In this document: piece after piece, positions 11,089 to 43,077 of the stretch
How the letters are laid out: each line of letters opens with the position of its first letter
Numbering within the stretch: the first letter of the stretch is position 1
Assembly: GCA_048538235.1 (NCBI GenBank)
Contig: JBLYPX010000001.1
Location: 679,554 to 743,553 of the forward strand
DNA from: Candidatus Komeilibacteria bacterium
Lineage (GTDB): Bacteria > Patescibacteriota > Patescibacteriia > UBA1558
DNA: 64,000 nucleotides
Reading direction: 5' to 3'
Notes under the pieces: model-generated
Seen by the model: the letters and a program-made list of their open reading frames with translations, nothing else
Database searches by the model: none
What the model was told of the DNA's origin: nothing
Made by a program: the position numbers and the translations under genes

Positions 11089-11092
11089 ATAT

Positions 11093-12865: not shown

Positions 12866-12868
12866 TAT

Positions 12869-13883: not shown

Positions 13884-13884
13884 A

Positions 13885-14742: not shown

Positions 14743-14744
14743 AA

Positions 14745-15881: not shown

Positions 15882-15898
15882 TTATTTTTGTTATATTT

Positions 15899-22792: not shown

Positions 22793-22826
22793 AAAAACAA
22801 CCACCTAATATTAGGTGGTTGTTTTG
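22793..22826. terminator. bidirectional rho-independent terminator between efp (+) and the convergent minus-strand gene
   Basis: AAACAACCACCTAA-TAT-TAGGTGGTTGTTTT gives a perfect 12-13 bp stem flanked by A/T runs on both sides. Confidence 0.65.
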
Positions 22827-22832
22827 TATATA

Positions 22833-26600: not shown

Positions 26601-28722
26601 CCTTTTCATCACTTAAATGTTTTAAGGCTTTGTACAAAGCGGCTCTTCTAGTCTCTGCCTTCTTCCTACCATCTGTACCAGGGTTTTGAGAATCTACTTT
26701 TTCATTAACTTGTTTAACTAATTTATCTACCTTATCATAAGGCATACTCTTAAACATTTCTTTAACAGCCTTACTCTTTATATCTCCCAAATTATCTTCA
26801 ACATCTCCAGCTTGAAATCTCTCTGGCTCATCTGCAAACACCCTACCCTTACGCTCAGCTAATCTCTTTTCTTTTATTTCTTTTTCAGCAGATTTATACA
26901 CCCTCTTAAGTGGATTAATAGAAGAAACTTCCTTCTTCTTATATTTTTCTTCTGCTCTAGTTGTTGCTTCGGACTTTTCTTTATTAATATATGCTTCTTT
27001 AAGCTTTGCACTACTTAAAGATTGATCGCTGTATAGATCTTCTCCCTCTTCAATATCATATTTAGTGCGCAATTCATTCTCAGCATTCGTTATAGCTCTA
27101 GCTTTATATGCATCTCTTGCCTCGTCTACAGTATTTACATCAAACTCTGTTATTAGTTCCTGCTTACGAGCATCATCAAAACCGTTCCATTCTGTACGTG
27201 CCTTATTCTTTGCCTGCTCAGTAACACTATCGTGTTCCTCTCTCATAAAAGACTCTCTAATGTCACCAGCTGCAACCTTACCAGAACCATCTCTAGCGGT
27301 ACCACCTTTATTCCATAACTTATTCGCACCCGCAGCATCTGCGTTAATAGCTTTAGAAATAGCTTCCCTTTTCGGAATCTCTGCTCTAGCAGCTAAAGCT
27401 GCATTAATATTATCTCCACCACCAAAAACTTTCTTTCTGATATTATCTGCTCTTTTATCTCTTGCTTTCTCTCTTCCTTTTAACTTATCTTCTGACCTAG
27501 CTGCCGCTAAATGTAATAATGACCCCTCTCTTGCTCCACCTTCTGTAGCGCCAACTCTTTTAGCATCCCACCTTAAAAGCGCTCCGCCCGTACCACCAGC
27601 CAACGCTTTTCCACCCGCTTTTAAACCTCTACCACCTGCCTTCATGCCAGACTTAATATATCCACCACCCTTCTTTATTCCTTTGTCAAAAACCTTGCCC
27701 ATTAGACCACCAGATTTACCTCCCATTTTTTGAGCCATCTGCATACCAACAACCAAAAGCATAATACCTAATAGGTAGTTAAGTAAAAATGGCGCTGAGG
27801 CTAATTGCCCACCAATAATACTATCGGGATTAACAGAACTTTCTTCAGCTGTAAAACGTCCACCAGTTTGTGACACAACAGACAATGTTAACCATAGGAA
27901 AAAAGCAATAGCCGGACCAACAATTAACTGCTCGCTAAACTGAGACCACCATTGTTTTGCCTGACCACCTAAACTTCCTGGTAAAGCTGAAGCTAAATAT
28001 GCAAAAGGAGACATTACAACTAATATCCATAGAATAACAATACGATAAGCAAGCATAGCAACAACAGCAACCAAAACCACTAACAATATTAACGAAATAA
28101 GTAGACCAAAAATCATGCCAAGGATAAGGGCAAAATTATCTTGCTCTATTTCTCCAGAGGCATCCATTGAACTTGCTAAGGATTTTAACTTATTCAAACC
28201 AAAAGCCTCTGTAAAACCAACAATAATAGAATCTCTAAAAGCAGCTACAAAAGTTAACATGATAACTTGAGAAACATCTATTAAAAATCCTGCTATTGTC
28301 TTTGAAAAGTTAATCAATATAGCCATAATAATAACTTTCCTCAAAAAGTTCTTATAACTATATGATTCAACACCTAAAACTGTACCAACAGAGATGATAA
28401 GTAATATGACTATAAAGAACATATTACATATATCTCTAACAAGCACCCAACCAGTTGTTACAGCAGCCGCTGAAGTAAATTCATTAAACTGAGCAATATT
28501 AATGAGAACGGATAACACTAAGGTTATAAGTGAGCCTATCAAACTCATCAATAAATCCAGTATCCAGGCAAATACATTAGTCATTGCATCAGCTATACCA
28601 GCTGCATGACTAATAAAAGGTACTAAAATAATTAAACTTAAAACGAAAACAACCAAGGCTAACCGTTTAGTCACCTTGGTGTTTGCAAACTTCTTTATTC
28701 TAAGAATTAGATTTTTAAGCAT
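23629..28722 (-). CDS. giant membrane protein: N-terminal polytopic TrbL/VirB6-like domain plus ~1350-aa K/E/S-rich repetitive extension
   Basis: 1697 aa. It has a signal-like N-terminus, six or more TM helices in the first ~340 aa, a Gly/Lys linker, a long charged coiled-coil-like region, an S/T/E-rich segment with a 54-aa tandem repeat, and an acidic C-terminus. The TrbL/VirB6 assignment is by topology and architecture only. Confidence 0.55.
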   Translation of the reverse strand: MLKNLILRIKKFANTKVTKRLALVVFVLSLIILVPFISHAAGIADAMTNVFAWILDLLMSLIGSLITLVLSVLINIAQFNEFTSAAAVTTGWVLVRDICNMFFIVILLIISVGTVLGVESYSYKNFLRKVIIMAILINFSKTIAGFLIDVSQVIMLTFVAAFRDSIIVGFTEAFGLNKLKSLASSMDASGEIEQDNFALILGMIFGLLISLILLVVLVAVVAMLAYRIVILWILVVMSPFAYLASALPGSLGGQAKQWWSQFSEQLIVGPAIAFFLWLTLSVVSQTGGRFTAEESSVNPDSIIGGQLASAPFLLNYLLGIMLLVVGMQMAQKMGGKSGGLMGKVFDKGIKKGGGYIKSGMKAGGRGLKAGGKALAGGTGGALLRWDAKRVGATEGGAREGSLLHLAAARSEDKLKGREKARDKRADNIRKKVFGGGDNINAALAARAEIPKREAISKAINADAAGANKLWNKGGTARDGSGKVAAGDIRESFMREEHDSVTEQAKNKARTEWNGFDDARKQELITEFDVNTVDEARDAYKARAITNAENELRTKYDIEEGEDLYSDQSLSSAKLKEAYINKEKSEATTRAEEKYKKKEVSSINPLKRVYKSAEKEIKEKRLAERKGRVFADEPERFQAGDVEDNLGDIKSKAVKEMFKSMPYDKVDKLVKQVNEKVDSQNPGTDGRKKAETRRAALYKALKHLSDEKVSNEASKYYDQNLSNESISVQGEPKKISDVEVKKSTKDYMVDSQVSDDQILNTGLAVENEISNLMPTDMVRADMSEEGKDWQVDQEATSRNENSNVVLKKGDETREVNKDEFVANNASVLGERFYNSDKYKSLSEEEKSSEYLNQDQYSEYSKISKSTQGGITMGSLARSGNMTAVDFNELNERVEGGLTGQKRKAGMFVNGEEAIKAASAMKEMVQAYQSELESAEEDEDIRTALEYFGVKPSKDADLQQVKNDTLHGIETESGERVSGVDQLLNNLNDEERIKSDGLVLVNKSRKGKDAKQLIRHEKAHSTIEGVDSDGSIQEDVWNSMTVAEKESARQYIREDRNQPNMTEGDIRKEYLADAIANVGKNGVIDKSKPKLPQPFVDRIINAKDMTVSEGGVSVEKGKSFFESRKERKAMKKERKENIRAANSEQERQKTEERLREQALNDWSSMSNEQKEEFMIVNGGQGYDADRDEDALDVYQSSVVNKAMNKEEIKRQSEENKAVAKEDDYYKTQDVINATKALFAKSYNDNNSKVKDLTGRAESYEKDAAQAKKEYEDPNYVNPEGAMYRYNEATKKANALRKEASRISTENQKYKTSHEKEIKSLESLASKQKTKAEEARARANEVSRSTTNTEKAGSNKETSSRDSDRSTASSESMSSAEKARDTQSSVQGESSSSVETVSTSKAESAGQDKQTSSRDSEKESVASSEATRSTQAARDTQSSVQGESSSSVETVSTSKAESAGQDKQTSSRDSEKESVASSEATRSTQAARDTQSSVKDRVSDLSKVIADRNSTKEQIQNSLQALEKEIEINLPEEEKNEPDNKKFLEELRKLLAQTDNTSNSTDEEAMNVISGQMDQFLSNIPPGMLNAGKAKQSSNKGGINIPKTSSGSFLSKPLSMAQFLAMKKWFEQQSSQVKKMGASQAAFSNEMQDKIANVNQRISNINTSGGGDVDMKVILEEEGLSGDEIEQIVSNYTSEQEDEE
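24257..24615. repeat. 162-bp direct tandem repeat (~2.2 copies) inside the giant ORF
   Basis: CTTTGAGTATCTCTGGCTGCTTGAGTGCTTCTAGTTGCTTCAGAGCTAGCAACAGACTCC... recurs at ~24257, ~24419 and (partially) ~24581. This encodes the 54-aa repeat ARDTQSSVQGESSSSVETVSTSKAESAGQDKQTSSRDSEKESVASSEATRSTQA. Confidence 0.85.
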
Positions 28723-28795
28723 TAAAAAATCTTAGTAATCTATCTTTATTATACTTAAAAAAAGAAATAAAATCAAGGAAAAACAATACCTAATA

Positions 28796-28824
28796 TTGAC
28801 AAAAACATAAAAATGGTGTATTAT
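28796..28824 (+). promoter_or_regulatory. sigma70 promoter for the first T9SS-CTD gene
   Basis: TTGACA, a 17-nt spacer, then TATTAT. SD AGGAGAG lies before the ATG at 28907. Confidence 0.55.
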
Positions 28825-28906
28825 ACTATATTACTTTATTATTTGATCTTTTATAACAAAATTAATAGCACATACAAAATCTCAAGGAATTGAGTAGGAG
28901 AGTAAA

Positions 28907-30139
28907 ATGAAGACTTTAAACTTATTAACTGCGTTAATGTTTGTATTTATTTCGATCGTACATGGTGACTGGATAAACATAACTAACCCAGACACTGATG
29001 ACGATGATTTAAACACAATGGTAAGAACGGAAAATGATATGTTTCACATGTTTGGAGAAGATGGTACATATATTAGGGGGATTAATTTCTCACTATCAAA
29101 TCAACCATCGCCGGCTGGACTTGAAACAGATTATTTTAAAGCTTTTGCCGTAAACAACACTATCTATATATGTGGGGAAGAAAATACTATCCTTAAATCT
29201 ATAGATAGTGGTAATAACTGGAATGTCCAGTTCCAAGGCAATGACGATGACTTATCATTTTATGCAATGAGCTTCTGGAGTGAAAACTCCGGCGTTGTAG
29301 GTGGAGACAATCTCACTATCATGCTTACAACCGACGGACAAACATACACAGAAGTGATGAGTAATCCAAACGGCGGATGCATAAAATACATTCATCAAGT
29401 ATCTTCTAATGTTTTCCTTGCTGGCGGTTGGGATTATGAGAACAATGGAATACTTTTCCGCTCTCAAGATAGGTGTGAAACGTGGAATACAGTAAATATC
29501 AATACAAGTGATGATGTTTTCCACATAACCAGTCTTGGCGAAACCGTATTAATTGCCACCAAAGGAAGCTCGCACTGTTTGAGAAGTGACGATGGAGGAG
29601 TTAGTTTTTACTACTTAAACACGCCAACAAACAACGGAGTGAACGGTTTCAAGATTATTTCCAATGATCTGATCTTTATGTACAAGGGCGTTGAGTTGTA
29701 TTCTTCAACCGACTCGTGTGCAACCTGGACGCTCGAACATGAAACCGATGACACGATTAGAGATATGTATGTTGACACAACAAACCATATTAGTTGGTTA
29801 ACTGGAAGAAATGGAATAGTTTCATACAATTCATCATTTCTAGTCTCTATCGACCCCATCAATCAACAAGTGCCAAATGGTTATGTGTTAAACCAGAATT
29901 ATCCAAATCCATTCAACCCAAACACGACAGTTGAGTATTCTATTCCTGCTGATGGAATGTGTACTCTTACGATATACGATTTCCGTGGCAAAGAAATCAA
30001 AACTGTTGTAAACGAATTCCAGTCTGCTGGAACTCATCGGGTTGCAATTGACGGTAGTAATCTACCTTCTGGCGCCTACATCTACAAGTTGCAATCCGGT
30101 GGAATTTCATTATCCCACAAAATGCTACTTGTAAAATAA
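28907..30139 (+). CDS. secreted BNR/Asp-box repeat protein with T9SS (Por) type-A C-terminal sorting domain
   Basis: 410 aa with a signal peptide and Asp-box repeats (SIDSGNNW, SQDRCETW, SDDGGVSF, STDSCATW). The C-terminus LNQNYPNPFNPNTTVEYSIPADGMCTLTIYDFRGKEIKTVVNEFQSAGTHRVAIDGSNLPSGAYIYKLQSGGISLSHKMLLVK is a textbook Por_Secre_tail. GC is noticeably above the window background. Confidence 0.85.
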   Translation: MKTLNLLTALMFVFISIVHGDWINITNPDTDDDDLNTMVRTENDMFHMFGEDGTYIRGINFSLSNQPSPAGLETDYFKAFAVNNTIYICGEENTILKSIDSGNNWNVQFQGNDDDLSFYAMSFWSENSGVVGGDNLTIMLTTDGQTYTEVMSNPNGGCIKYIHQVSSNVFLAGGWDYENNGILFRSQDRCETWNTVNINTSDDVFHITSLGETVLIATKGSSHCLRSDDGGVSFYYLNTPTNNGVNGFKIISNDLIFMYKGVELYSSTDSCATWTLEHETDDTIRDMYVDTTNHISWLTGRNGIVSYNSSFLVSIDPINQQVPNGYVLNQNYPNPFNPNTTVEYSIPADGMCTLTIYDFRGKEIKTVVNEFQSAGTHRVAIDGSNLPSGAYIYKLQSGGISLSHKMLLVK

Positions 30140-30161
30140 CCTGCATTTAATAATCAACAAA

Positions 30162-30189
30162 CCCTCACCTAATTAAAGGTGGGGGTTTT
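30162..30189 (+). terminator. rho-independent terminator
   Basis: CCCTCACCT-AATTAA-AGGTGGGGG followed by TTTT. Confidence 0.6.
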
Positions 30190-30227
30190 ACATATTTACT
30201 TATTTTAACCTCAAATATTAGTAAACC

Positions 30228-30256
30228 TTGACAAAATACATTAAATAGTGTATTAT
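30228..30256 (+). promoter_or_regulatory. sigma70 promoter for the second T9SS-CTD gene (paralogous to the promoter at 28796)
   Basis: TTGACAAAATACATTAAATAGTGTATTAT gives TTGACA, a 17-nt spacer, then TATTAT. SD AGGAGG sits within a small hairpin before the ATG at 30334. Confidence 0.55.
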
Positions 30257-30333
30257 TATATGTTATCATTAAATAGGTAACAGAACCTTGAAAAACCAAA
30301 CAAACAAAGAGGCTAAGCCTCTAGGAGGAAATC

Positions 30334-31560
30334 ATGAAAAAATTGATGATTACTATCGTGATGGCCGCTCTGGTGGCCATGCCTGTATTTGTATTTGCCG
30401 AGTGGCAAGTTGTACCGTATGCATACACATCTGACTTGCAATCAATATCTGCTACCCCCAACGGAACTGTACATACAGTCGGATGGTATGGTCTTTATGC
30501 CAGCGGAACCCTTAACGGTTTAGACGCACAGCCATATCCTGAAGGAACTAATGAAGCAACTGACTGGAATGTAGTAAGGGCTATTAACAATGATGTCATC
30601 TATATTGGTGGCGAAAGCATTGTTAAGTCATTAGATGGTGGCGAAAGCTGGACAGAACAATTCGAATTCTCCACCGACGATGCAGTATACGATATGGATT
30701 TTTGGAATCCTGACTCTGGCATCGCTGGTGGCGATAATCTAACCATACTGCTTTATACGGGTTCTGACTGGAACATAGTATATAGCATCCCTGATGGCGG
30801 GATGATTCGATCTGTCAAGCGCATTGCATATAACACGTTTCTTGCTGGCGGCTGGGATCAGAACTACGAAGGAATCATGCTTCGTTCCGACGACGGCGGA
30901 AGCAGCTGGACAGAGATTGAGCTTAGCACCTCTGATTTCGTAAACGGAATCACGAGTCTAAATTCAACAGTATATGTTGCTGGTCCAAACTCAATCCGTA
31001 AAAGTACAGACAACGGCCTCAGCTTTTTCTCCGTTCCTCAACCAACAGAGGCGCTCGGTACCACGGGTATAGCTATTGTCTCTACAGATGAACTTTACGC
31101 TTGGTCAAGTAATGCCCTCTATCACAGTCCAAACGGTGGGTTGAGCTGGGAGAGCGTGTATAGCTTTGGTTATACAATCGCTGATCTAGATATCGACACG
31201 GAAACTGGGGAAGCGTGGCTTTGTGGCGATGACGGTCTTATTGCCTACAACCAATCCCTTCCTTTGTCTGTGGACCGAGTCAGCGATGTAATTCCTAACG
31301 GATACACGCTTGAACAAAACTATCCCAACCCATTTAACCCATCAACCAACATTGAATACTCTATCCCGATCAATGAGAGTGTAAATATAATTATTTACAA
31401 CTCACTCGGTCAAACGATAGATGTTCTTGTTGATGAGCTCCAGTCTGCTGGAACTTACAAAGTTAACTGGAATGGGAATAGCTTACCTTCGGGTATGTAC
31501 TTCTACCAAATCAGCACACCAACTTTTACCAGAACCATGAAAATGGTGCTGGTAAAATAA
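30334..31560 (+). CDS. secreted BNR/Asp-box repeat protein with T9SS type-A C-terminal sorting domain (paralog of 28907..30139)
   Basis: 408 aa with a signal peptide and Asp-boxes (SLDGGESWTE, RSDDGGSSWTE, STDNGLSF, SPNGGLSWES). The C-terminus is LEQNYPNPFNPSTNIEYSIP...SGMYFYQIS...MKMVLVK. GC is roughly 42-47% by hand count. Confidence 0.85.
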   Translation: MKKLMITIVMAALVAMPVFVFAEWQVVPYAYTSDLQSISATPNGTVHTVGWYGLYASGTLNGLDAQPYPEGTNEATDWNVVRAINNDVIYIGGESIVKSLDGGESWTEQFEFSTDDAVYDMDFWNPDSGIAGGDNLTILLYTGSDWNIVYSIPDGGMIRSVKRIAYNTFLAGGWDQNYEGIMLRSDDGGSSWTEIELSTSDFVNGITSLNSTVYVAGPNSIRKSTDNGLSFFSVPQPTEALGTTGIAIVSTDELYAWSSNALYHSPNGGLSWESVYSFGYTIADLDIDTETGEAWLCGDDGLIAYNQSLPLSVDRVSDVIPNGYTLEQNYPNPFNPSTNIEYSIPINESVNIIIYNSLGQTIDVLVDELQSAGTYKVNWNGNSLPSGMYFYQISTPTFTRTMKMVLVK

Positions 31561-31581
31561 CACTTGTCCATAATGGACAAT

Positions 31582-31612
31582 AAAACCCCCTATCTCAAAA
31601 AGGGGGTTTTAT
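31582..31612. terminator. bidirectional rho-independent terminator
   Basis: AAAACCCCCT-ATCTCAAAA-AGGGGGTTTT sits between the + gene ending at 31560 and the convergent giant gene ending at 31634. Confidence 0.65.
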
Positions 31613-31633
31613 TATTAATAAAATATTTTTTAT

Positions 31634-34600
31634 TTAAGGAATTAATATAATTTCGCCATCATATCCTTCCCACCCAATAATTGCCTCAAAAATACCATCT
31701 CCATTTGTATCAACACCACAGTTACTACCACTTCCTTTACTACAAAAACCCCAATTATCCTCTACGTACACCTTTGGTGTATACACACAAGCTGGTTTAC
31801 CATCGACTTCCGTAGGCGGATTGCTACAAATATATGTGTGATTAAAACTAAAATAACCTATACCATTCTCGTAGTCATCCACACAATAATTAAGATCATT
31901 ACCGATGTTTTTTGGAACACACAAATTATTAGTTCCTGTACACTCAGCATTACTTCTACAACCCTGTCTTAACTTAAGGTTCTTTATTTGATAGCTTTGA
32001 TCAGAAGATAAACCTGGCGTATGATTCAACCTGCCAACCCCCAAATCCCTCAAACAATTACCACTTGTATTATTATCATTATAACAACTCGTTACCATTT
32101 CCTCTGGTATAGTTACTGTGCTACTGTAATGACACCAACCATCTTCTAAAGTTTCTGTACCATCTGGACAACCGGAATTAGTATTTGGTATGTAACTCAC
32201 ACCATTCACAACATTACTCAAAGAAGTTGTATCTGCGAATGGTAAATAAGGATAGCTTTCAGTCTGGCCGGGTAACAACAAGTTAGATTGAGAACAATAT
32301 CCGGTTGAATAACACCAATAATTAGCCATTGATCTTGTCGCAGTAATATTGTTACTTATTTTAAAATCATATTCTAGGGTTACAACATCTCCGGCTGTAA
32401 ATTTTTCATCTGCTATCTCTGTGTTTCTATATATTACCCAATTGTCATCCCTGCTCGATGTTTGTGTAATAGTAGTTATACCAGTTGACGTATTTTCCGT
32501 CGCAGTACCACCCCAAGATGTGGTTGGATTAAAATCATTCCAATAATTATCATCTGAAATTGAGTTGGTACAACTGTTAACACATATATTTTTGTGATTT
32601 TTCAAGCTAACAGTTTCATCATTCTCTCCAAAAATCGACGAACCATCATCCCAATCCACCATCAATCTACTTAATGGTAATTGATCACCAGTCTCATTAT
32701 ATGCATAAAACTTAACTGTTGCGTTATAGATATTCGATTCCATAAGAATGTTACCACTATTTTTATCGTTAATAGTTATCCCTGTATTTCCCTCCGAAAC
32801 TACACCGTTTGAATCTAATTCAACTTGACGTAGATCTACATTATCGCCAGAACTAATAGTAGAAATCTCACTAAATGATGCTTGTTCATATCTGTCTTGA
32901 CCATAATCCCAAGAAAATTTTTCTATAAGCCTTGCAAACAAATTCTTTAACCATTGCAATCCATTGTTATCACCTCCATTAAAATTTGAATTTATTGCCG
33001 AAACCAAATCTTGATCTTCACTATCAACTCCATAATAATGACCATCTATATTTGAAGACCCGTCTAACATACCTATAACACCTGATTGAGAAACTGAATA
33101 TGGTGTACCGGCAACTACCCCACTCAAACTAGTATTCTCATTTTCGACCTGTATAAACTGGTTATAATTATTCAAATTAAAATCTACGTTACTCATTCCA
33201 TACCAGCTATAATATTGGTCTATGTCTAAAGATATTTCATTGTCATCAACATCTTTAAATGTGGCCATACCATTTATAAAATTATTAAACTTAGGCGAGC
33301 CTACCCGAATAAAATCAGTACATATTTCTGTTGCAGAAGTGTCTGGTTGTAGATAGTTTACCGTAACGTTGTATATATAACCCTGAACTATATTATAATA
33401 ACCATCCATATACTCAAGCGGATTAATAAAAGAAACTTCATAACGAGACACGTTATCTACTCCATCAAAATCACCATCTTGAAAACCAACAATAAAAAAT
33501 GCATACATAGCATACTCATTCCAGTTATTGCAATTCGCATAACCACCAGCAAATTCATTAGCAGACAAACATCCATCCTCTCCATCTAAAAACGGGAAGA
33601 CACCCCCATTATTTCTTGTAAAATTATGCCAAATAAAAGATTCATCATCAAATGTTATGCCCGGGTTGCCGCCAACACTATCTATCGTGTAAAATGCCTT
33701 AACCCATATCTTTGAATCCTCTGGACCGCAAAAATCTTCATTAATATTACCACCAACGCAACTATATTCATCTTCACTCGTTAGCGTAATAGTGCTTGAA
33801 CCATTTATATTAAGTAACATACACTCATCTGGATCGTTACCATAAATATCATCTTGACACTTTAAAACACCATCCGTTCCTATACCATTAACAAAATAAT
33901 CGTCATGCCCTGGTATCTGCCAACCAGCCGCAACATTGTTGAATTCAATACTCTCAATGACTGATTCTTCTTTACCAAAACTATCTTCATCCCATATTTC
34001 AACATCTTGATTACTAACACCTACTGAAACATTAGGATACTGCTGACCACCATTCATGCATAAAGCTATTGTAGAATTGTCTTGAAAACCAGCATATGGT
34101 GAAACAATCTCAGGAGTTCTTGCGTAATAATCTTCCATCCAATAATAACCACAATGTTGCCAATCCCATACATAGCTCTCATTTTCTGGCGCCTGCTCAC
34201 CAAGATCTAACGAAACTGGAATAGACACGTCCCCTGCATAAGGATAATTACCTTCTGACTGTAAACAATAGTACATATTATCAAAATCCAAATTTAGGTC
34301 ATCAGCTATATTGACACCAGATGGGTTATATTCACCACTTAAAATATCTAATGGCATCCAAGTTAAACAAGGGTGTGTGCTGCCGGCATATCCAATTATC
34401 GTTCTTGAATAATCATATTCAAGACAGAAGCCCCAAAAACCGCGATAATTATTAACTGATTTAATTTGAGAATCGCCAATAGCAGTAAATCCATTATAAT
34501 TAGATCTATAATACCTAGTCTCACCTTGTGTGTAATTAACCTCTGTATAATCACACTCACAACCAGCGCCCTGAGAGCAGAAATTCGCTTGAGGCATCTG

Positions 34601-37600
34601 CAAAGGCTTGGTAATAATATTTCCATCATCATCAAACTCAATATTTAACCCTATTGTCGAAAAAGGAGCATCAGAATCAGGGAACAACCTACACGTTGGT
34701 TCAACAGTTATTCCATTAAAACCTACACCCGCTGTATCGTCACTTTCGTTGGACAACCTCAATACACCATCTTTATTTTTAGCCAACAAAGATTCTAAAT
34801 TAAACTTATTCAACAATGAGTAACCAGAATATTCTTGTCCTGACCAACCAGTTTCTCTGGCCGTATATACATCCTCAGTTAATATTTCATCACCTTTTTC
34901 TAACCAAGAAATACAAGTATTACCACTAGGAGATAACTCCGTACACCTGCCAAGGTCATAACAATACTCTTTCACACTTCCATCTATTTCTGTGGCATAA
35001 CTTGAAGATCTACAAGCTAGCCATTCGCTACACTCTCTATTTTTAGTTACTTTAATAACTTCATTACTATCACTTAAACAATCATCATCCTCTGGGGAGC
35101 ATCCTGTAACAACTGTTAAATTACCATTGTTTACTAAACTGTTATTATAGCTAGCATTACTGTCATATTGTCTTATTATCTCTCCATCACTATCTACATT
35201 AGATGTATCCAACATTAATACACAACCGCTTTCCCAAGAAACCTGTCCATTACAATCTGCACCATTTATACTGTTGCCGTTTATATAATAATATGACTGC
35301 GTCTCACTAATACCAACATTATCTAGATAGAATGTAGAATTGGTATCATTACCGAAAGCTATTGAACACCTTATGTTGTTATTACTTGAATCTGCTCTAA
35401 ATTTACCTGTAAAAGTTGAATATCTATCTGTTCTTGTTTGGGAACTTTTAATTAACATTTTATACACTCCACCACCCACACCTATAAATGAATCGTCATA
35501 TGATTCTATAGTAGCTCCTTCACAATATAGACCAACCGAATAACTACCAATACCCGTTGTACCAGCTAATGCATGAGCTACATTTATAAATCTTGGCAAA
35601 TTAAACGACATATCTTCTGCCTCCTCCTCACTTGGAGGTTGTTGGTCTCCACTAATAAATCTTAGATCAAACTTAACAGTATAATCTTTACCGCCATTTA
35701 TTGAGAAACTCTGTCTAAATGATTCATTACTACTTGGAGTATAATAATCTACATTTACAGCATTTGTATTATCCCTTCCTGATCCATTAAGATATGAAGT
35801 AAAGCCGTCACAGCTAGTATTATCTTCACACCAAAAATCTGGTATCTCTGGATCGTTATTTACATTTCCTAATTTCGTGTTTATTTCAAAATCTCCATTA
35901 AACAGCAAATTATCTCCTTGTGTTCCTTGAGGATCTATAAACTCTGTACAACCAACCGCAGCAGAATTACATTCTCCAGCAAACCCTATCCAATCAACAT
36001 CTCTTCTCTTATATAATTCACCGCTTTCATTACATGGTATTTTGTCTGCTTGGTTAGCATTATTAACGGATGATGTTAAATACCAACCAGTTAATTTCTG
36101 ACCATTAGACTCATAATTATCTAAGAAGGTACAAGTTCTTTCTCCTGGGTCTCTCATATACACAGTCTGTCCATCTGATTGATAAGCTTCACAATTTAAA
36201 GCATCCGTACCACAAAGCGTTAAATCATATCTTTCAGGATCATTTATTAAATATATATCTTCCCAAGAATCTATAACATTTGCATTATTATTATCAACTG
36301 CAAATTGAGGAGCACCCAAAACAGTACAACCCTTATCTCTACTACTGCAATAATATTGATTATCATCTACCAAATAAATTAATTCGTCTGCCTCTGTAGT
36401 TATATTTTGATCATCTGTATCCCAAGTCTGCGCACCAATTGCTTTAGTGTTTTTTGTATCAATAAACATTGAACAGCCAACAGATGATTCAGAGCACAAA
36501 CTATTGAAGCTGCTCAAATAATGAGTATTGCCTAATCTATCCTCATATTCATCACAACCCAAATCCTCAACAGTACATTGATCTGGTGTATTCCAAGAAT
36601 CTTTAACTAAATATAGATCTGAGTTGATTTCTTTCAAGACTATATTATCTATATAGTAATATGAATTATTTGCTGGGAAGTTCAAATTAAAACTAAGTAT
36701 ATTATTGGATGACGTGTCATCAAAATATACTGGACCTAGATTATACTGTTTCCATACACTCCTAACATCTAAACTGAAACTTGGGGCAAATAAATAATCA
36801 TTATCATTATTAAAGGATATCTGTGCTTGTGTTCTGGCTGCAGTACTAGCCTTTAACCAGAAAGATAATGTATATGATTTACCAGAACGAATACTTACAT
36901 TCTTTGAAAGAATTGTTTCACTATTAGCTTTGTATGAATGCCCACCTGTTACAACAGATTCTGAACTTAATGAGCCACCTGTCCAACCATGTGTTCCGGC
37001 CTCAAAATCATCGACAAACAATCTTCTGACATTACTACCATCACTACCCTTATATACTTTACAACCAACAGCCTCTGCTGAACACGAACCCGATTCAGAA
37101 GTTAAAACTAATGCCATATCTGCACTATCTATTGCTCTTCTTAACTGAACACAGCTATTACTTGCTTTAACAACACTGCTTTCTCTTACTAAATATTCAT
37201 CGTTATTCTCATCAACAAACCAACGACAGGCAGGATCATCTTCTTCTACACAAGTGTCTACACCATTAACTGTATCGTTACAAACATTAGTTGTTCCATT
37301 ATACATAACACTAGTACAAGGACCGTCGTTAATATCACTCTTTAATAAACTCCAAGATCTTAATTCAAAACCAGTTGTTTCAGATCCTTCCCAGGTATAA
37401 TATGTTGTAACGTCTGGGTCTGTATCTGGAACACACATTCTTAAAGAATTATAATACTCAACAGTTTCACCAGCTGTCATATTAGTAAAGGCTTCACAAC
37501 CAACCTCTTCTAAACTACAACTCTGAGCTGTGTCAGCAATGAAACTATCGTAAGTTATGATATCATCTGCGCCAAACCACCTATCTATTTCTGTATTTTC

Positions 37601-40258
37601 CTGTAAATATTGTTCATAACCACTACATTCAGATGAACAATAGTCACGACTACTCACTATTCCCGGTATTGATGGATCGCCATTAGTTGGAATGTATAAT
37701 TCACAACCAAGTTCATCTGCTTCACAACTTGGAGCATAATTATCACAAGCAGGAACCCAATTATTTTCACAATCTAAATAATCTGGAGCTTTTTTAATAT
37801 AGCTAATATTCTTAGATCCATAATTTACATAATTATTTGCCCTAGATCCAACTTCTAATTGAATATTATCAAACCACAAAGACCCTCCACTACTTGTCAA
37901 AACTCTGACTCTTGCTGAAGCAACTTTATCATTTGTAAAAAATGTACAACTACTCCTTTCCATATTTCTACTAACTGGAGTAAATTGTAAATCTACATTT
38001 TGTGGGTGTCCGCCAACACCAATAGAACAATCTCCCGCACCAATAGCAAAGGCTTGGCTATTATCACCACAATTTTTATTATTATCACATAGTTGCACTA
38101 TTACTCTAGCAGCAACCTCTTCACTGTTTGAAATTTGAGCGGCTGAAGCAGAAATAGTATATTGAGCATTTGGAGCTACTTTTACATTTGACTGAGCAAC
38201 ATTCCAGTTATAACTTTGTTTTATCTTACCATCTGAATATTCATCAGCTGTTCCCCAATTGTCTGGTTGAGCGCCGTCTGTGCTTTGACTAAAATCACCA
38301 TTATAAACCAAGTTAACACCTGGCTCTATTTTTATTAATTCTGAACAACCAGCATTCTGTCCCTCACAAGTACCGGCTTGAGCATTTAATCTTATCTGAG
38401 AATTTTCATCCCATATAGTTTCATTATCTCCATATGAAGAAACGGTTGTACTATACCAACGACAACCAACTTCATCTGCTGTACAGAAATCTAATGTATC
38501 TTTAATATAATAATCTGTTCCCTGATCGCTAGTATAAGAACGGCAAGAAGCATAAGCAGACAAACATTGCTCACCACCAAACTGCCATACATTTTTTTCA
38601 CGCGTACAATAACCCCACGCACCAGGTAAACACTCGCCATTACCATCTGTTTTTAAGCAAGTTTGAGCATCAACACAGATCTCACTTCTGTTTGTACTAC
38701 TTGGTGTTTCTAGAACAGGTCCATAACCACTAGCCCTACATTGAGCAGCTGGTGCTACTAATATCCAATCTGGGTCAATTAAACTTTCATAATCACTCCC
38801 AGAAACATTAAACTGGGCAATAACCTCACCTAGAGTTACTGGGCTATCTACTGGACTCTTTGATGCAGCTATTTCCCAACCCAAAGGTATAAATCTAGCC
38901 AGTCTCATCTTTTGTAAATTAGAATAACACAAAGCATCTTTGTGACAGTACTGTAAGTCACTATGTAGATGACTGTCTTTAGATATTAAAGGCGTATTAG
39001 CATCTATCAGTCTTAATTGAATTGCCTCTGCTACTGTAATTGGTTCATTCTTACTAAATGCAGAATAAAACTTTGGATCCATTACGCAATTATTCAAATT
39101 ACGAATATTTTCATCAGGACATATAACAAAATCATTAGCTGGATCATATTGTTCGATACTACTAGGTGAGACCGCAAACGCCTCTGAATAATATTTCTCT
39201 ATAGTTTGCGTATTTACAGGGTTTGCATATGGATTAACATTTAAATTCAAATCACTATTATCTGTACCGGGTGTTGAAGTGGCATAGGGAGTGCCAAATA
39301 AAAAATTATTAAGATTGAAATTTTTATATGTATTTATATCATACAAACCATTAATAAGATTTTCTAAAAATGTAGATGTTAGCGTGTTAGTAAATGTCGC
39401 TGCAGCACGAGCTAAAACAGGATGTTCAGAATTGGCAGCAACCTGCAATTTAAGACCTTGGAATTGTAAACCCATATTAGCCGGAGCTTGAGCAGCGCTC
39501 TGAACATCCTCAGCACCACTTTTCACCTGAGTTTTAGTAGTATTAAGCACTGGCCTATAGGTACTCTTTAAAGTTTGTATTATTTCATCCCTTTCTTGAG
39601 TTTCTTTTTTAGCTATTAACTTATCATTTAAAGATAGTTGGGCTGAAAAATCACTCTTACCTGGTCTAAATTGAATTTGTAGTCCTTCTACTAAAGCGGC
39701 CTGAGCTGCATCTCGCTCTGCTTGAGTACAACCTTCACCGAACAAACATGCCTGTTCTGCAACAAAAGACTCCCAGTTTCTGACAATGTTTGCCAAATCA
39801 CACCTAGGCTGTATTATTTGATCGTTCTTCAATAAAGACATTGTAATAGTAGCCTTTATATCTAAATCTGGATTACAAAGATCAATTCCTAGGTCTGACC
39901 ATTCATCACTTAAACCACCAATAAAATCACCAGCTGCTGCCCCTGCTGCATCTTTAAGAATGTTTTGAAAGACTCTTCCTTCAAATAACGTTCCTTGCCC
40001 CCTATCACCAGTGGCTAGTGAAACAGCTGTTTCGTAAGCAAATTTCTGCAAAAACATATCTGATGCATCTATAACCAATTGCTTAACTGTTAGTGTAACA
40101 AAATTTTTAACAACGTCTTTAATTTTCTGCCACGTAAATTCTATAACAGTGGCCGCATCAAAGGTCGGTAAAGCGTATGCTTGTTGCGGAGCTAGTGCAG
40201 CGCCAAAAATAGTAGTTAAAAAGCACACCGTTAAGATAATTGTTGTTATTTTACTCAT
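31634..40258 (-). CDS. giant (2874 aa) secreted Cys/Asn/Gly/Tyr-rich surface protein of unknown function
   Basis: It has a signal peptide (MSKITTIILTVCFLTTIFGAALAPQQAYA) and one uninterrupted 8.6 kb frame with no TM segments after the signal. It contains many Cys pairs. It is co-transcribed with the upstream 243-aa protein (6-nt gap). Confidence 0.7.
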   Translation of the reverse strand: MSKITTIILTVCFLTTIFGAALAPQQAYALPTFDAATVIEFTWQKIKDVVKNFVTLTVKQLVIDASDMFLQKFAYETAVSLATGDRGQGTLFEGRVFQNILKDAAGAAAGDFIGGLSDEWSDLGIDLCNPDLDIKATITMSLLKNDQIIQPRCDLANIVRNWESFVAEQACLFGEGCTQAERDAAQAALVEGLQIQFRPGKSDFSAQLSLNDKLIAKKETQERDEIIQTLKSTYRPVLNTTKTQVKSGAEDVQSAAQAPANMGLQFQGLKLQVAANSEHPVLARAAATFTNTLTSTFLENLINGLYDINTYKNFNLNNFLFGTPYATSTPGTDNSDLNLNVNPYANPVNTQTIEKYYSEAFAVSPSSIEQYDPANDFVICPDENIRNLNNCVMDPKFYSAFSKNEPITVAEAIQLRLIDANTPLISKDSHLHSDLQYCHKDALCYSNLQKMRLARFIPLGWEIAASKSPVDSPVTLGEVIAQFNVSGSDYESLIDPDWILVAPAAQCRASGYGPVLETPSSTNRSEICVDAQTCLKTDGNGECLPGAWGYCTREKNVWQFGGEQCLSAYASCRSYTSDQGTDYYIKDTLDFCTADEVGCRWYSTTVSSYGDNETIWDENSQIRLNAQAGTCEGQNAGCSELIKIEPGVNLVYNGDFSQSTDGAQPDNWGTADEYSDGKIKQSYNWNVAQSNVKVAPNAQYTISASAAQISNSEEVAARVIVQLCDNNKNCGDNSQAFAIGAGDCSIGVGGHPQNVDLQFTPVSRNMERSSCTFFTNDKVASARVRVLTSSGGSLWFDNIQLEVGSRANNYVNYGSKNISYIKKAPDYLDCENNWVPACDNYAPSCEADELGCELYIPTNGDPSIPGIVSSRDYCSSECSGYEQYLQENTEIDRWFGADDIITYDSFIADTAQSCSLEEVGCEAFTNMTAGETVEYYNSLRMCVPDTDPDVTTYYTWEGSETTGFELRSWSLLKSDINDGPCTSVMYNGTTNVCNDTVNGVDTCVEEDDPACRWFVDENNDEYLVRESSVVKASNSCVQLRRAIDSADMALVLTSESGSCSAEAVGCKVYKGSDGSNVRRLFVDDFEAGTHGWTGGSLSSESVVTGGHSYKANSETILSKNVSIRSGKSYTLSFWLKASTAARTQAQISFNNDNDYLFAPSFSLDVRSVWKQYNLGPVYFDDTSSNNILSFNLNFPANNSYYYIDNIVLKEINSDLYLVKDSWNTPDQCTVEDLGCDEYEDRLGNTHYLSSFNSLCSESSVGCSMFIDTKNTKAIGAQTWDTDDQNITTEADELIYLVDDNQYYCSSRDKGCTVLGAPQFAVDNNNANVIDSWEDIYLINDPERYDLTLCGTDALNCEAYQSDGQTVYMRDPGERTCTFLDNYESNGQKLTGWYLTSSVNNANQADKIPCNESGELYKRRDVDWIGFAGECNSAAVGCTEFIDPQGTQGDNLLFNGDFEINTKLGNVNNDPEIPDFWCEDNTSCDGFTSYLNGSGRDNTNAVNVDYYTPSSNESFRQSFSINGGKDYTVKFDLRFISGDQQPPSEEEAEDMSFNLPRFINVAHALAGTTGIGSYSVGLYCEGATIESYDDSFIGVGGGVYKMLIKSSQTRTDRYSTFTGKFRADSSNNNIRCSIAFGNDTNSTFYLDNVGISETQSYYYINGNSINGADCNGQVSWESGCVLMLDTSNVDSDGEIIRQYDSNASYNNSLVNNGNLTVVTGCSPEDDDCLSDSNEVIKVTKNRECSEWLACRSSSYATEIDGSVKEYCYDLGRCTELSPSGNTCISWLEKGDEILTEDVYTARETGWSGQEYSGYSLLNKFNLESLLAKNKDGVLRLSNESDDTAGVGFNGITVEPTCRLFPDSDAPFSTIGLNIEFDDDGNIITKPLQMPQANFCSQGAGCECDYTEVNYTQGETRYYRSNYNGFTAIGDSQIKSVNNYRGFWGFCLEYDYSRTIIGYAGSTHPCLTWMPLDILSGEYNPSGVNIADDLNLDFDNMYYCLQSEGNYPYAGDVSIPVSLDLGEQAPENESYVWDWQHCGYYWMEDYYARTPEIVSPYAGFQDNSTIALCMNGGQQYPNVSVGVSNQDVEIWDEDSFGKEESVIESIEFNNVAAGWQIPGHDDYFVNGIGTDGVLKCQDDIYGNDPDECMLLNINGSSTITLTSEDEYSCVGGNINEDFCGPEDSKIWVKAFYTIDSVGGNPGITFDDESFIWHNFTRNNGGVFPFLDGEDGCLSANEFAGGYANCNNWNEYAMYAFFIVGFQDGDFDGVDNVSRYEVSFINPLEYMDGYYNIVQGYIYNVTVNYLQPDTSATEICTDFIRVGSPKFNNFINGMATFKDVDDNEISLDIDQYYSWYGMSNVDFNLNNYNQFIQVENENTSLSGVVAGTPYSVSQSGVIGMLDGSSNIDGHYYGVDSEDQDLVSAINSNFNGGDNNGLQWLKNLFARLIEKFSWDYGQDRYEQASFSEISTISSGDNVDLRQVELDSNGVVSEGNTGITINDKNSGNILMESNIYNATVKFYAYNETGDQLPLSRLMVDWDDGSSIFGENDETVSLKNHKNICVNSCTNSISDDNYWNDFNPTTSWGGTATENTSTGITTITQTSSRDDNWVIYRNTEIADEKFTAGDVVTLEYDFKISNNITATRSMANYWCYSTGYCSQSNLLLPGQTESYPYLPFADTTSLSNVVNGVSYIPNTNSGCPDGTETLEDGWCHYSSTVTIPEEMVTSCYNDNNTSGNCLRDLGVGRLNHTPGLSSDQSYQIKNLKLRQGCRSNAECTGTNNLCVPKNIGNDLNYCVDDYENGIGYFSFNHTYICSNPPTEVDGKPACVYTPKVYVEDNWGFCSKGSGSNCGVDTNGDGIFEAIIGWEGYDGEIILIP

Positions 40259-40264
40259 ATATAT

Positions 40265-40996
40265 TTAATAAGATATTTGATTTTCATTTAAAGCCTCCTC
40301 ATACATTACCATCAAGTCCTCGTCTGAAATTACTGCTAATTCTTCTTCTGATATTCCAGAATTAAGTAGCATAGCCCTTACCTCCTCAACAGACACATTA
40401 TAAAGTCCACTCGCTGCGTCAGTCGCACCTTGTCCTGACAAAACTAAAGTGGTTTGCTCGTAAAGCTCAACCATATCCTGTGTAGACAAAACATTAATTT
40501 CACTTTCTGGATAACCTAATTTAACAAGTTCTGTGATTAAACCTTCTTTTCCACCATATGATTCAATGGTCATGTCTAAATCCGTTGGAATTTGATCAAA
40601 TAAATTAGTATTACAGCCGTCTGGATTACTGCATAATGGATCTGCACCAGAAACAACCTCTATTCTATCTCCTAAACCATCTGAATCTGTATCTTCAATG
40701 TATGCAGATGTTCCATAAACATACAATTCTAAATAATCTGACAAACCATCCCCATCTGAATCCATTTTTTTTAACTCTTCTGCGTCTTGAAGATCAACCT
40801 GATCACTCTTTTCCACCTCAACATTAGCAAATCTAGCCATGCCAATTTTAAAAGGCTCCTTAATATTACTTTGAGCCTGGTAAAACGAAAAACTAAAGAC
40901 TAATAAAGCTACAGCTAGAACGCCTAAATAGTAGTACGGACTTTCTGTATTAATCTTTAAAACTTTCTTTAGTTTTTCTAGTAAATTATTAAACAT
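40265..40996 (-). CDS. membrane-anchored protein with a dockerin-like pair of EF-hand Ca-binding loops
   Basis: 243 aa with an N-terminal TM (YYYLGVLAVALLVFSFSFY). It has two 12-residue DxDxDGxxDxxE loops (DSDGDGLSDYLE and DTDSDGLGDRIE) spaced 23 residues apart. Each is followed by a hydrophobic helix, as in type-I dockerin F-hand duplications. Confidence 0.55.
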   Translation of the reverse strand: MFNNLLEKLKKVLKINTESPYYYLGVLAVALLVFSFSFYQAQSNIKEPFKIGMARFANVEVEKSDQVDLQDAEELKKMDSDGDGLSDYLELYVYGTSAYIEDTDSDGLGDRIEVVSGADPLCSNPDGCNTNLFDQIPTDLDMTIESYGGKEGLITELVKLGYPESEINVLSTQDMVELYEQTTLVLSGQGATDAASGLYNVSVEEVRAMLLNSGISEEELAVISDEDLMVMYEEALNENQISY

Positions 40997-41018
40997 TTAT
41001 AAAGTAAAAACTACTGAT

Positions 41019-41047
41019 ATTATAACAGTAATTTACTAGTACGTCAA
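41019..41047 (-). promoter_or_regulatory. sigma70 promoter for the 243-aa plus giant-protein operon
   Basis: On the minus strand: TTGACG, a 17-nt spacer, then TATAAT (TTGACGTACTAGTAAATTACTGTTATAAT), just upstream of 40996. Confidence 0.55.
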
Positions 41048-41062
41048 AATGATAACAAACTA

Positions 41063-41908
41063 TTAAATTAGTAGTTTAGATAAGTGAATCCAATCATCAA
41101 TGCTGAGCTCTTGAGCTCTAATATTTTGATCTAATTTTAACTTATTTAACGAATTAGTAATAACCTCCTTATCTAAATGTAAACTATTACTTAAATTATT
41201 AACCAAAGTTTTTCTTTTATTTGAAAAACCACTTTTAACTACTGACCAAAAATCTTTCTCGCTTACTTTTTCTTTTTTAATAATATCTAAGAATCTATTA
41301 TCTATAACAATCTGTATAACAGCTGAATCTACTTTAGGTTCAGGCCAAAAACATGTCTTTGGTACTATTCTTACTATCTTAGGCACACCGTAAAACTGAA
41401 CACTTATTGCTAATTTACTTAAATCACCAGCTTTTGCTACTATTCTTTCTGCCACTTCTTTTTGTACAAGTAATGTTAAACTGCTTGGCTTTGGCTCAAA
41501 CGTTAAAAACTTTTGTATTATCTTTGAAGTTATTTGATAGGGTATATTTGCCACCACCATATAATCTTCTGTTAAGTGTTCAGCTATTTTATCATTCTTA
41601 ACTCTAAGAATATCTTCATTAATAATTTGTAAATTATTATTAACATCTGCTAACTTCTGAATTAAAGGTATTAATTGTTTATCATACTCTACTGCTAGCA
41701 CCTTACCAGCCTTTTTTATTAATTCTTTAGTCATAACACCAAGACCTGGCCCTATTTCTAATACATTATCTTCCTTTTGTATATCTGAAGATTCTAAAAT
41801 AGCTTCCAATATATCCTCACAAATTAAAAAGTTTTGTCCTGCGACAAAACCTGGCTTTATCTTATGAGCACGTATTAAATATTTTGTTTGTTCAAGTAGT
41901 TCTCCCAT
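41063..41908 (-). CDS. rsmA: 16S rRNA (adenine1518/1519-N6)-dimethyltransferase
   Basis: The RsmA/KsgA sequence starts at internal Met (MGELLEQTKYLIRAHKIKPGFVAGQNFL...LEIGPGLGVMT). The supplied ORF (to 42019) was extended upstream through the neighbouring gene, so I trimmed the start to 41908. Confidence 0.8.
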   Translation of the reverse strand: MGELLEQTKYLIRAHKIKPGFVAGQNFLICEDILEAILESSDIQKEDNVLEIGPGLGVMTKELIKKAGKVLAVEYDKQLIPLIQKLADVNNNLQIINEDILRVKNDKIAEHLTEDYMVVANIPYQITSKIIQKFLTFEPKPSSLTLLVQKEVAERIVAKAGDLSKLAISVQFYGVPKIVRIVPKTCFWPEPKVDSAVIQIVIDNRFLDIIKKEKVSEKDFWSVVKSGFSNKRKTLVNNLSNSLHLDKEVITNSLNKLKLDQNIRAQELSIDDWIHLSKLLI

Positions 41909-41910
41909 AT

Positions 41911-43077
41911 TTAGAGTAGAGTATATAGCCACGTAGCAATACCAGCTGTAATAAAGACAATATAGAACGGTAACAAACCACCCGTGAAGATGGATAATAA
42001 TCCAAATACCAATATACAAGTAATTAATTTACCAATAGCTAAAGATAGTTCAAAGACTAATACTTGGTGCATAACTGTATGATTCTTAGCATTCTCATAA
42101 GTTATGGCCGTTAAAGGAACAACAACTGTATTCTTAGAAATTCTAGATAAACCATCTACTAAAAATACTCCCCATTGACCTTGAATAATCATTCTTAAAA
42201 ACCAAGACAAGGAATAAAACATAGCACCACCCCTTAATATTTTCCTCTTGTCCATTTTATCTGACAACCTACCAATAACAAAGGTTACTAGCATAGTAAG
42301 AAAAGTAGTAACAGCAACCAGCCCACCAATAGAAAGCATATCTTTTACAAATAGCGATATAAATATTGGCCAGACAACTACTACTAATATTTCCTCACCA
42401 AAACCAAGATAGGCAAAAAACTTTTTTCTATTATTTTTATGGAATAGTCTTTTATAACTATACTCATAATCTACTGGATCTGAAACAAATCTTTCTTTAG
42501 TGAGCAACATCGGAACATTAGATAAAAGAAATATTGATGCTACTACAATAAATAAAACGTGAAATCCCCATTCGTGAAGAATAAACCCACCAACAACTGG
42601 TCCAATAATAAAAGTTAAAGAAGTAAGAATGTTTAGAGTGCCAATTTCTCTTCCCTCTTCTGAATCAGCTGAGTATTTAGAAAAATTTGCATGATAAGCA
42701 GGCCAATATAATGATTTCTGGGCTGCATAAAATAATGGAGTAATGTAGAAAAATATAGAATGAGCTTCAATTAAATATAAACCTAAATATAATAGTATCC
42801 AAAAAAATGTTCCATAAAACATGGTGTGTTCATAACCAAACTTTTCCGCCACTTTAGCTCCCAATGGAATACACAACACATAAAAGAAATATACCATCAC
42901 CCAAAACAACATTATTTGTTGTAATGAATAGCCCAACCTAAATAAATAAATTGGTTCAAAGATAAAAATTAAAGCTAAGCCAAAATTAAGAATTAAGGTA
43001 GCTGTAAATAGCTCCTTAATTTCTGGTTTCATTCTTTTTGGAAGAAAAGATATTAAATTATGGACTGCACGAATCAT
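41911..43077 (-). CDS. polytopic MFS-like transporter (paralog of 43930..45129)
   Basis: 388 aa with about 10-12 TM segments. It shares motifs with its paralog (FFAYLGFGEE vs FWAYFGDG; WPIFI; GRLSDK vs GDLTDK). Confidence 0.65.
   Translation of the reverse strand: MIRAVHNLISFLPKRMKPEIKELFTATLILNFGLALIFIFEPIYLFRLGYSLQQIMLFWVMVYFFYVLCIPLGAKVAEKFGYEHTMFYGTFFWILLYLGLYLIEAHSIFFYITPLFYAAQKSLYWPAYHANFSKYSADSEEGREIGTLNILTSLTFIIGPVVGGFILHEWGFHVLFIVVASIFLLSNVPMLLTKERFVSDPVDYEYSYKRLFHKNNRKKFFAYLGFGEEILVVVVWPIFISLFVKDMLSIGGLVAVTTFLTMLVTFVIGRLSDKMDKRKILRGGAMFYSLSWFLRMIIQGQWGVFLVDGLSRISKNTVVVPLTAITYENAKNHTVMHQVLVFELSLAIGKLITCILVFGLLSIFTGGLLPFYIVFITAGIATWLYTLL

Follow-up and report, generated by a model that had tools for sequence, protein, structure and literature searches.

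What does a very large, secreted, cysteine-rich protein do in a bacterium of the Patescibacteria group, and why is its gene so regularly preceded by that of a small membrane protein? Such a gene pair lies in a 64,000-nucleotide (nt) stretch of Candidatus Komeilibacteria DNA (assembly GCA_048538235.1, contig JBLYPX010000001.1, positions 679,554 to 743,553; this whole stretch is called the window here, and unprefixed positions refer to it). The two products, 243 and 2874 amino acids (AAs) long, are identical to the "hypothetical proteins" ACKKL6_03475 and ACKKL6_03470 of a Candidatus Komeilibacteria metagenome-assembled genome (MAG), which the NCBI taxonomy places under Patescibacteria group, Parcubacteria group; we call them the small protein and the giant, respectively. 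Most Patescibacteria are uncultured, and outside the Saccharibacteria little is known of their attachment to, and exchange with, other cells. The giant gene takes up roughly 1% of the 860,445-bp contig (probably most of the genome) at a fixed housekeeping locus, and the pair is a concrete, testable candidate for a surface contact structure of a whole clade of the Candidate Phyla Radiation (CPR). Surface display or attachment is, we infer, the most plausible function of the giant. The reading we favour, which we hold with about as much confidence as doubt, is that the pair encodes a glycan-binding adhesin held at the surface by its partner, possibly in cooperation with a type IV secretion-like conduit, and that it is a vertically inherited module of Parcubacteria-group Patescibacteria.

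The genes are arranged as the original prediction for this DNA had described, with the 243-AA open reading frame (ORF) followed on the same strand, after 6 nt, by that of the giant (coordinates are collected in the table below). The strong TTGACG-17-TATAAT promoter predicted upstream of the small gene also stands, with an 11/12 match, a TG-extended -10 element and a position that is kept in relatives. It is the top promoter-like site in 11.5 kb; this score is weak evidence on its own, since the region contains 56 promoter-like sites in all, the number expected from shuffled sequence (52.5 ± 7.7). In 21 of 76 related loci the 150 nt upstream of the small gene contain a match of at least 10/12, against 11 of 380 random windows from the same loci, and nearly all of these positionally conserved sites have the form TGnTATAAT. 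Because the promoter lies upstream of the small gene and a terminator-like hairpin follows the giant, the two genes very probably form a bicistronic operon in the source genome, as had been proposed. The gap between them is short in the related loci as well (median 7.5 nt; 66 of 78 gaps lie within -60 to +40 nt), which suggests that their translation is coupled.

The pair is widespread and appears to be inherited as a unit. A word-index search found 41 homologues of the giant, about 1,900–4,250 AAs long, all from Patescibacteria and all annotated as "hypothetical", and a phmmer search with its most conserved 281 residues matched 1,099 clusters at 50% identity (1,047 of them at E ≤ 1e-10). These matches start almost always at about residue 350–390 of proteins of 2,500–3,600 AAs, and since the conserved domain sits at so nearly constant a position the family has a single architecture. 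A scan of one genome per species found a relative in at least 587 species genomes, a count that is a lower bound. Of 85 loci, 75 have a small-protein homologue, recognized with a hidden Markov model (HMM), as the immediate upstream neighbour of the giant on the same strand, and two more have one within 560 bp; the remaining loci without an upstream small gene begin at a contig edge, save one locus. The order LeuRS, Sua5/YrdC, MFS (major facilitator superfamily), RsmA, small gene, giant recurs across orders, and this recurring housekeeping order indicates vertical inheritance of the gene pair. A phage origin was rejected, as no relative of the giant turned up in 2.9 million viral contigs. The family is not described in the literature searched, where no source names it, which agrees with the earlier statement that no described system matches. 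A giant with a separate anchor is a known kind of surface adhesin; what is new is the family, with its domains, partner and locus.

Informative titles of the records that carry a giant name Komeili-, Uhr-, Falkow-, Kerfeld- or Buchananbacteria or "Patescibacteria group". Many MAG records titled "uncultured Gammaproteobacteria bacterium" (CA* accessions, loci L007-L083) share the LeuRS-Sua5-MFS-RsmA synteny, and these titles look wrong. At one Falkowbacteria MAG locus the giant appears split into ORFs of 1573 and 1086 AAs (L071:5956-10677 and L071:10950-14207) by a frameshift, a pseudogene state or an assembly error. In the window the RsmA ORF (41063..42019, reverse strand, TTG start) overlaps the MFS gene (41911..43077, reverse strand) by 109 nt; this overlap, together with a Pfam match that does not begin before AA 60, makes it probable that RsmA really starts further downstream.

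Alignment of the small-protein family shows a Lys-rich N-terminal tail, one transmembrane helix, a "PF" motif, two loops joined by Y.YGTSpY, an invariant Cys pair (C122/C128) and a helical motif, L..G.s.eeL..iSDeeLm.mYee, in one or two copies. The tail obeys the positive-inside rule and the Cys pair is invariant, so the protein is probably oriented N-in, C-out. The predicted N-terminal anchor and pair of 12-residue calcium-type loops are both present: the loops, DSDGDGLSDYLE (AAs 79–90) and DTDSDGLGDRIE (AAs 102–113), start 23 residues apart, and D79, D81, D83, D87 and E90 of the first and D102, D104, D106, D110 and E113 of the second, i.e. loop positions 1, 3, 5, 9 and 12, do not vary among 32 sequences. 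Pfam TSP3_bac (PF18884) is matched by each of the 32 family members (best E 4.7e-11), by the window protein itself exactly at the cut-off (25.0 bits, cut-off 25, E 1.7e-5), and by profile, period and linker the loops are bacterial thrombospondin type-3 (TSP3) repeats. Calcium binding by the small protein is well supported at the level of sequence.

In NCBIfam the small protein weakly matches the TSP3 regions of Myxococcus MtsD, MtsC and CglD, which act in cohesion (MtsC/MtsD) and gliding (CglD). It shares with these bacterial TSP3 proteins the DxDxDGxxDxxE calcium loops and the GT.P.. linker, and they too are cell-surface proteins in adhesion or cohesion. It differs from them in having only two repeats in a 243-AA single-pass protein, a helical motif peculiar to its family at the C-terminus and a giant as obligate neighbour, and it is not an Mts or CglD orthologue, since the NCBIfam match reaches only 31 bits against a cut-off of 800.

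The loop spacing had originally been taken for that of a type I dockerin, and this part of the prediction failed. In dockerin F-hands a helix comes after each loop, and the loop starts are about 33–35 residues from one another. If the small protein were a dockerin in the membrane and bound a cohesin-like module in the giant, the two EF-hand-type calcium loops on a membrane anchor adjoining a secreted giant would be accounted for, and the small protein does share with the dockerin-cohesin pairs of cellulosomes its two 12-residue EF-hand-type loops and the idea of calcium-dependent extracellular docking. However, its period of 23 falls short of the approximately 34 of dockerins, its sequence gives no sign of F-hand helices, and the period and the conserved YGTSPY linker are TSP3 features. 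The Pfam comparison gave TSP3_bac for the whole family, while Dockerin_1 is not among the listed matches either of the window protein (hmmscan, E ≤ 0.1) or of the 32 members (E ≤ 1; 25 of the 44 weakly matching families listed), and a Pfam scan found no cohesin in the giant or in the 37 other window ORFs scanned. The dockerin analogy is therefore not supported, and as an explanation of the locus it is scarcely credible.

The giant is almost certainly secreted and rich in disulfides, as predicted. Its lone hydrophobic segment is AAs 1–25, within a Sec signal peptide (cleavage site AYA|LP), and there is no other transmembrane-like segment. An Asn/Gly/Tyr/Ser/Cys content called extreme in the original prediction is indeed enriched, but the word overstates it (Ser 9.4%, Asn 8.8%, Gly 7.9%, Tyr 5.3% and 97 Cys, or 3.4%). 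The mature protein has 96 cysteines; among the mature forms of 33 family members, with 80 to 206 cysteines each, 31 have an even number (binomial p about 6e-8); about 45 cysteine positions are invariant across the family. This parity is strong evidence that every cysteine would be disulfide-paired, and since it points to full pairing the giant is expected to fold outside the cell. MdbA-like/VKOR disulfide machinery has been reported for CPR bacteria (10.1101/335083). Fourteen C-x6-C pairs, mostly of the form C-x3-[VLA]-G-C-x2-[YF], occur in the giant (e.g. CTADEVGC, CEADELGC and CSAEAVGC).

The giant carries no recognizable means of holding on to the cell. It has no lipobox, no sortase motif (LP.[TSA][GANS]) anywhere, no C-terminal hydrophobic tail (it ends ...GEIILIP), and no SLH, CWB2 or similar wall-anchoring domain in Pfam or NCBIfam. 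Pfam, NCBIfam, PADLOC and PDB sequence and profile searches found no catalytic or toxin domain, and thus the earlier finding of no recognizable catalytic motif holds, the giant resolving into no known enzyme family; no PADLOC model matches, which removes a defence-system reading. No tandem repeats occur in the giant's DNA, and the only one in the scanned region, 22800..41100, sits in the VirB6-like gene described below (a 162-nt duplication of 2.1 copies, 98% identical, at 24254..24598, in the Ser/Glu/Lys-rich tail of that protein).

BLAST mapping and windowed identity show that giants are collinear over AAs 1–1450 and again over AAs 1650–2010, with a conservation peak at AAs 451–600 (43% mean identity among distant members), and that AAs 1501–1650, 2101–2250 and 2551–2700 are variable or replaced. 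A profile of 67 N-terminal halves matched only CBM4/9/16/22-type carbohydrate-binding modules (CBMs) in the PDB, at two positions (E 1.6e-5 and 7e-10). An AlphaFold2 (AF2) model of AAs 28–1215, built from a 27-row alignment, has a mean predicted local distance difference test (pLDDT) score of 62, with both of these modules at about 80–88; it contains long helices at AAs 30–345 (low confidence), a confident alpha/beta domain, the two confident jelly rolls and a beta-rich Cys domain. Foldseek comparison of the model with the PDB returned solely jelly-roll proteins (CBMs, reelin repeats, Cry domains and CDTb), with target template-modelling scores of 0.56–0.67 (about 0.6) for CBM4/16/22. Profile, model and Foldseek thus agree on a jelly-roll fold related to CBM4/9/16/22 for both modules; in direct comparison with Pfam CBM_4_9 the window giant scores 16.9 bits, below the 25.9 cut-off, and these modules are not attached to any glycoside hydrolase. 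The giant yields new domains, among them the confidently modelled alpha/beta domain, for which the PDB comparison gave no fold relative. The C-terminal 1,660 AAs match nothing in the PDB, and the last 420 AAs have neither a Pfam family nor a PDB sequence match. A PKD/Ig-like reading of the C-terminal DWGDG...HxY...VxVxDNWG motif was rejected, as none of 58 C-terminal segments matched PKD in Pfam and there was no PDB hit.

Table. Features of the small gene, the giant gene and the genes downstream of them, in window coordinates
Feature	Position	Strand	Basis or remark
Sigma-70-type promoter TTGACG-17-(TGt)TATAAT, extended -10	41019..41047	-	11/12, conserved position
Small protein, 243 AAs, single-pass membrane protein with two TSP3 repeats, conserved partner of the giant	40265..40996	-	Pfam, alignment
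Transmembrane helix AAs 21-39, after Lys-rich tail	40880..40936	-	Hydropathy, alignment
Two TSP3 calcium loops, YGTSAY linker, then invariant C122/C128	40658..40762	-	TSP3_bac match, alignment
Two helical motifs (L..G.s..EL..lSdeeLm.mYee), C-terminal ectodomain	40292..40549	-	Alignment; no significant Pfam match
Giant, 2874 AAs, secreted, Cys-rich, ACKKL6_03470, "hypothetical protein"	31634..40258	-
Sec signal peptide AAs 1-29, cleavage AYA|LP	40172..40258	-	PxPAxA conserved in homologues
Conserved N-terminal region AAs 30-345, long helices predicted at low confidence, candidate docking site	39224..40171	-	pLDDT 30-55, weak co-variation
Family-specific compact alpha/beta domain AAs 372-507, NLxKxRxARIIPxGWEIAA and LIDPxWVLK, flanks most conserved stretch	38738..39145	-
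Cys-rich beta-hairpin modules AAs 507-645, C-x6-C pairs CTADEVGC and CEGQNAGC	38324..38740	-
Beta-jelly roll 1, CBM4/9/16-like, AAs 647-817	37808..38320	-	Profile against PDB E 1.6e-5, model
Cys-rich beta modules AAs 818-1075, invariant cysteines	37034..37807	-
Beta-jelly roll 2, CBM4_9/CBM22-like, AAs 1078-1212	36623..37027	-	CBM_4_9 E 0.009; E 7e-10 to 4xup
C-x6-C hairpin modules AAs 1215-1450	35909..36616	-
Third jelly-roll-like module AAs 1455-1650, lineage-specific	35309..35896	-	By motif only; gapped in 81% of distant members
Conserved Cys-rich region AAs 1650-2010	34229..35311	-
Lineage-variable distal region AAs 2010-2500	32759..34231	-
C-terminal domain D-W-[GD]-D-G ... H.Y.C ... P[RK]V.V.DNWG[WF]C ... 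G.I.V.P	31637..32761	-	No Pfam/PDB match
Terminator-like hairpin	31586..31605	-	Just 3' of the giant's stop codon
VirB6/TrbL-like polytopic protein, 1697 AAs, about 8 transmembrane segments in AAs 15-335, approximately 1350-AA charged tail	23629..28722	-
W268, 268-AA acidic protein, weakly related to a family after the VirB6-like gene elsewhere	22833..23639	-	No Pfam match

The frequent next gene downstream raises the question of a type IV secretion system (T4SS). Of the 61 loci with enough flanking sequence, 36 have a VirB6/TrbL-like gene downstream of the giant in the same orientation, and in 19 of these it comes within 60 bp; in the window it sits 3 kb downstream. Pfam TrbL/VirB6 matches 7 of 24 N-terminal domains of this protein family, and three database relatives exceed the TrbL cut-off of 25.9 (37.5, 29.4 and 28.5 bits); the window copy has no significant TrbL match of its own and is assigned through these relatives. 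TcpH of pCW3 and the Rickettsiales RvhB6 proteins are VirB6/TrbL proteins with long C-terminal extensions, and the family in question shares with this type a polytopic N-terminal domain and a very long hydrophilic tail; it differs in that no VirB4 or VirD4 gene lies near the window copy. Two plus-strand genes separate the giant from the VirB6-like gene in the window. They encode BNR/Asp-box sortilin-like paralogues (28907..30139 and 30334..31560; 39% identity) with a Por_Secre_tail, a type IX secretion-type sorting signal, in a host group regarded as monoderm, and their GC content, 0.38 and 0.45, exceeds the window mean of 0.338. Because they lie on the opposite strand, precisely at the point where in other genomes the VirB6-like gene comes straight after the giant, this pair is probably an insertion or horizontal acquisition.

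How might these parts work together? The strong extended -10 promoter would give one mRNA on which the two genes are translationally coupled. The small protein would insert N-in, C-out and expose two TSP3 Ca2+ loops, a short disulfide loop and one or two helical motifs, while the giant would be exported by Sec, lose its signal peptide and fold outside the cell with all of its cysteines paired. Since the giant itself lacks a membrane segment, a lipobox, LPXTG and an SLH-type anchor, it is most likely held at the surface by its small partner, probably through the conserved helical N-terminus of the giant. The conserved proximal half, with the family-specific domain, the CBM-like jelly rolls and the C-x6-C hairpins, would form a stalk, and the rapidly diverging distal half would contact glycans on another cell. 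The frequency of a VirB6/TrbL-like next gene suggests that the giant may cooperate with a type IV secretion-like membrane conduit. Pairwise distances between small proteins track those of giant AAs 30–345 best (r 0.74; partial r 0.54 when the core domain is controlled for, n=33 loci; the converse partial r, for the core domain, is 0.11, n=33 loci), which is weak evidence for contact between the two.

Several points weigh against a partner-anchored, glycan-binding adhesin of this kind. The co-variation figures carry no significance control, and both of the regions compared evolve fast; the N-terminal helical region of the giant is modelled at a pLDDT of only 30–55; and the jelly rolls are credited with glycan binding because of their fold only. 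On the side of the conduit, 25 of the 61 loci, mostly of Uhrbacteria type, have no VirB6-like neighbour, and no VirB4 or VirD4 was found by Pfam among the 38 ORFs scanned in the 64-kb window.

A neighbouring explanation is that the giant is an envelope protein that tiles the surface as a calcium-stabilized S-layer, tied to the membrane by the TSP3 protein, with jelly rolls that bind the cell's own wall polymers and without any specific function in host contact. Groundwater CPR cells have been observed to bear surface layers, and in S-layer systems it is typical to find calcium-binding partners and conservation of the parts close to the wall. A single, vertically inherited locus in a housekeeping neighbourhood, with a strong, positionally conserved promoter, would suit such a protein. 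On the other hand, no SLH, CWB2 or other known anchoring domain was found, a size of 2,500–4,250 AAs with 80–206 cysteines is atypical, the linkage to a VirB6-like gene is left unexplained, and the identity of about 30% over 1,450 AAs across orders exceeds the usual conservation of S-layer proteins; we consider this explanation unlikely. A released toxin or enzyme that attacks cells or degrades polymers is much less likely still. The Foldseek matches do include Cry toxins and CDTb, by way of their jelly-roll domains, CBM-like modules often accompany glycoside hydrolases, and at one locus a 1207-AA SpvB/TcdB-mid/FG-GAP/RHS toxin-like protein is encoded two ORFs downstream of the giant (L051:16882-20502). 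Against these stand the failure to find a catalytic or toxin domain in the searches above, the want of an immunity-like small gene after the giant, and the obligate membrane partner, which a released protein would leave unexplained. The variable part is internal and the C-terminal end conserved, which is the reverse of polymorphic toxins, and an Rhs/CdiA-like toxin was rejected on these grounds together with the lack of a toxin domain.

The giant and its partner could instead be a dedicated outer arm of a VirB6-based translocon for exchange of DNA or macromolecules with a host, serving as mating-pair or contact adhesin or as channel extension in place of the PrgB-type adhesins of monoderm conjugation systems. 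The operons of monoderm T4SSs place their adhesin genes ahead of those for the channel. PrgB of pCF10 and sortase-anchored Ig-repeat adhesins are likewise large, secreted, multi-domain proteins with a variable distal part, encoded upstream of VirB6-type genes. Unlike these, the giant has no LPXTG motif or Ig/Big repeat array, is extremely disulfide-rich and shows no sequence similarity to them, and its anchoring is presumed to be via a separate membrane protein. The VirB6-like gene downstream, its TrbL assignment through relatives, and an M23 peptidase gene between the giant and the VirB6-like gene in L042, L080 and L082 (e.g. L082:16530-18158) speak for such an arm; in the window an M23/LysM gene (47740..49041) lies near LeuRS instead. 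A preprint on Patescibacteria T4SSs points the same way, in that it reports KsgA/RsmA genes to be frequent near virB4 in CPR bacteria and found no PrgB-type adhesin in them (10.1101/2025.01.22.634366). Judged as a monoderm MPF_FATA-like T4SS, however, the cluster contains the VirB6-like component, while no VirB4 or coupling protein (VirD4) was found in the window or adjoining the cluster in L001, L002, L003 and L005. VirB3 and VirB8 homologues were likewise not found in the window, the flanks in L001 and L002 are housekeeping genes (MetK, NusA) and hold no T4SS ATPases, the many loci with no VirB6-like neighbour count here as well, and the neighbouring families F10, F13 (an occasional intervening family) and W268 have no Pfam match and no recognizable T4SS domain. 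We regard a dedicated T4SS arm as improbable on balance. Also doubtful, to a like degree, is the boldest form of the adhesin reading, in which Patescibacteria would have their missing extracellular contact arm in the giant and its TSP3 anchor, a family-specific adhesin of new fold that couples host recognition to a VirB6-based conduit for uptake of DNA or metabolites. If true, the pair would count as an organelle that defines one large CPR clade and would give direct access to the way in which these episymbionts attach.

Elsewhere in the window, a type IV pilus cluster occupies 5223..19042 on the reverse strand, with genes for a pilin (5223..5816), prepilin peptidase (6981..7751), PilC (8416..9624), PilT (9625..10701), PilB (11093..12865), a PilO-like protein (13194..13883) and PilM (14745..15881); two ORFs upstream of pilM (15899..17362 and 17363..19042) have no Pfam match. 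A second PilB-like ATPase is encoded on the plus strand at 57367..59058. The valyl-tRNA synthetase (60536..63670, reverse strand) carries a His_Phos_1 domain inserted at AAs 438–626 (E 1e-38).

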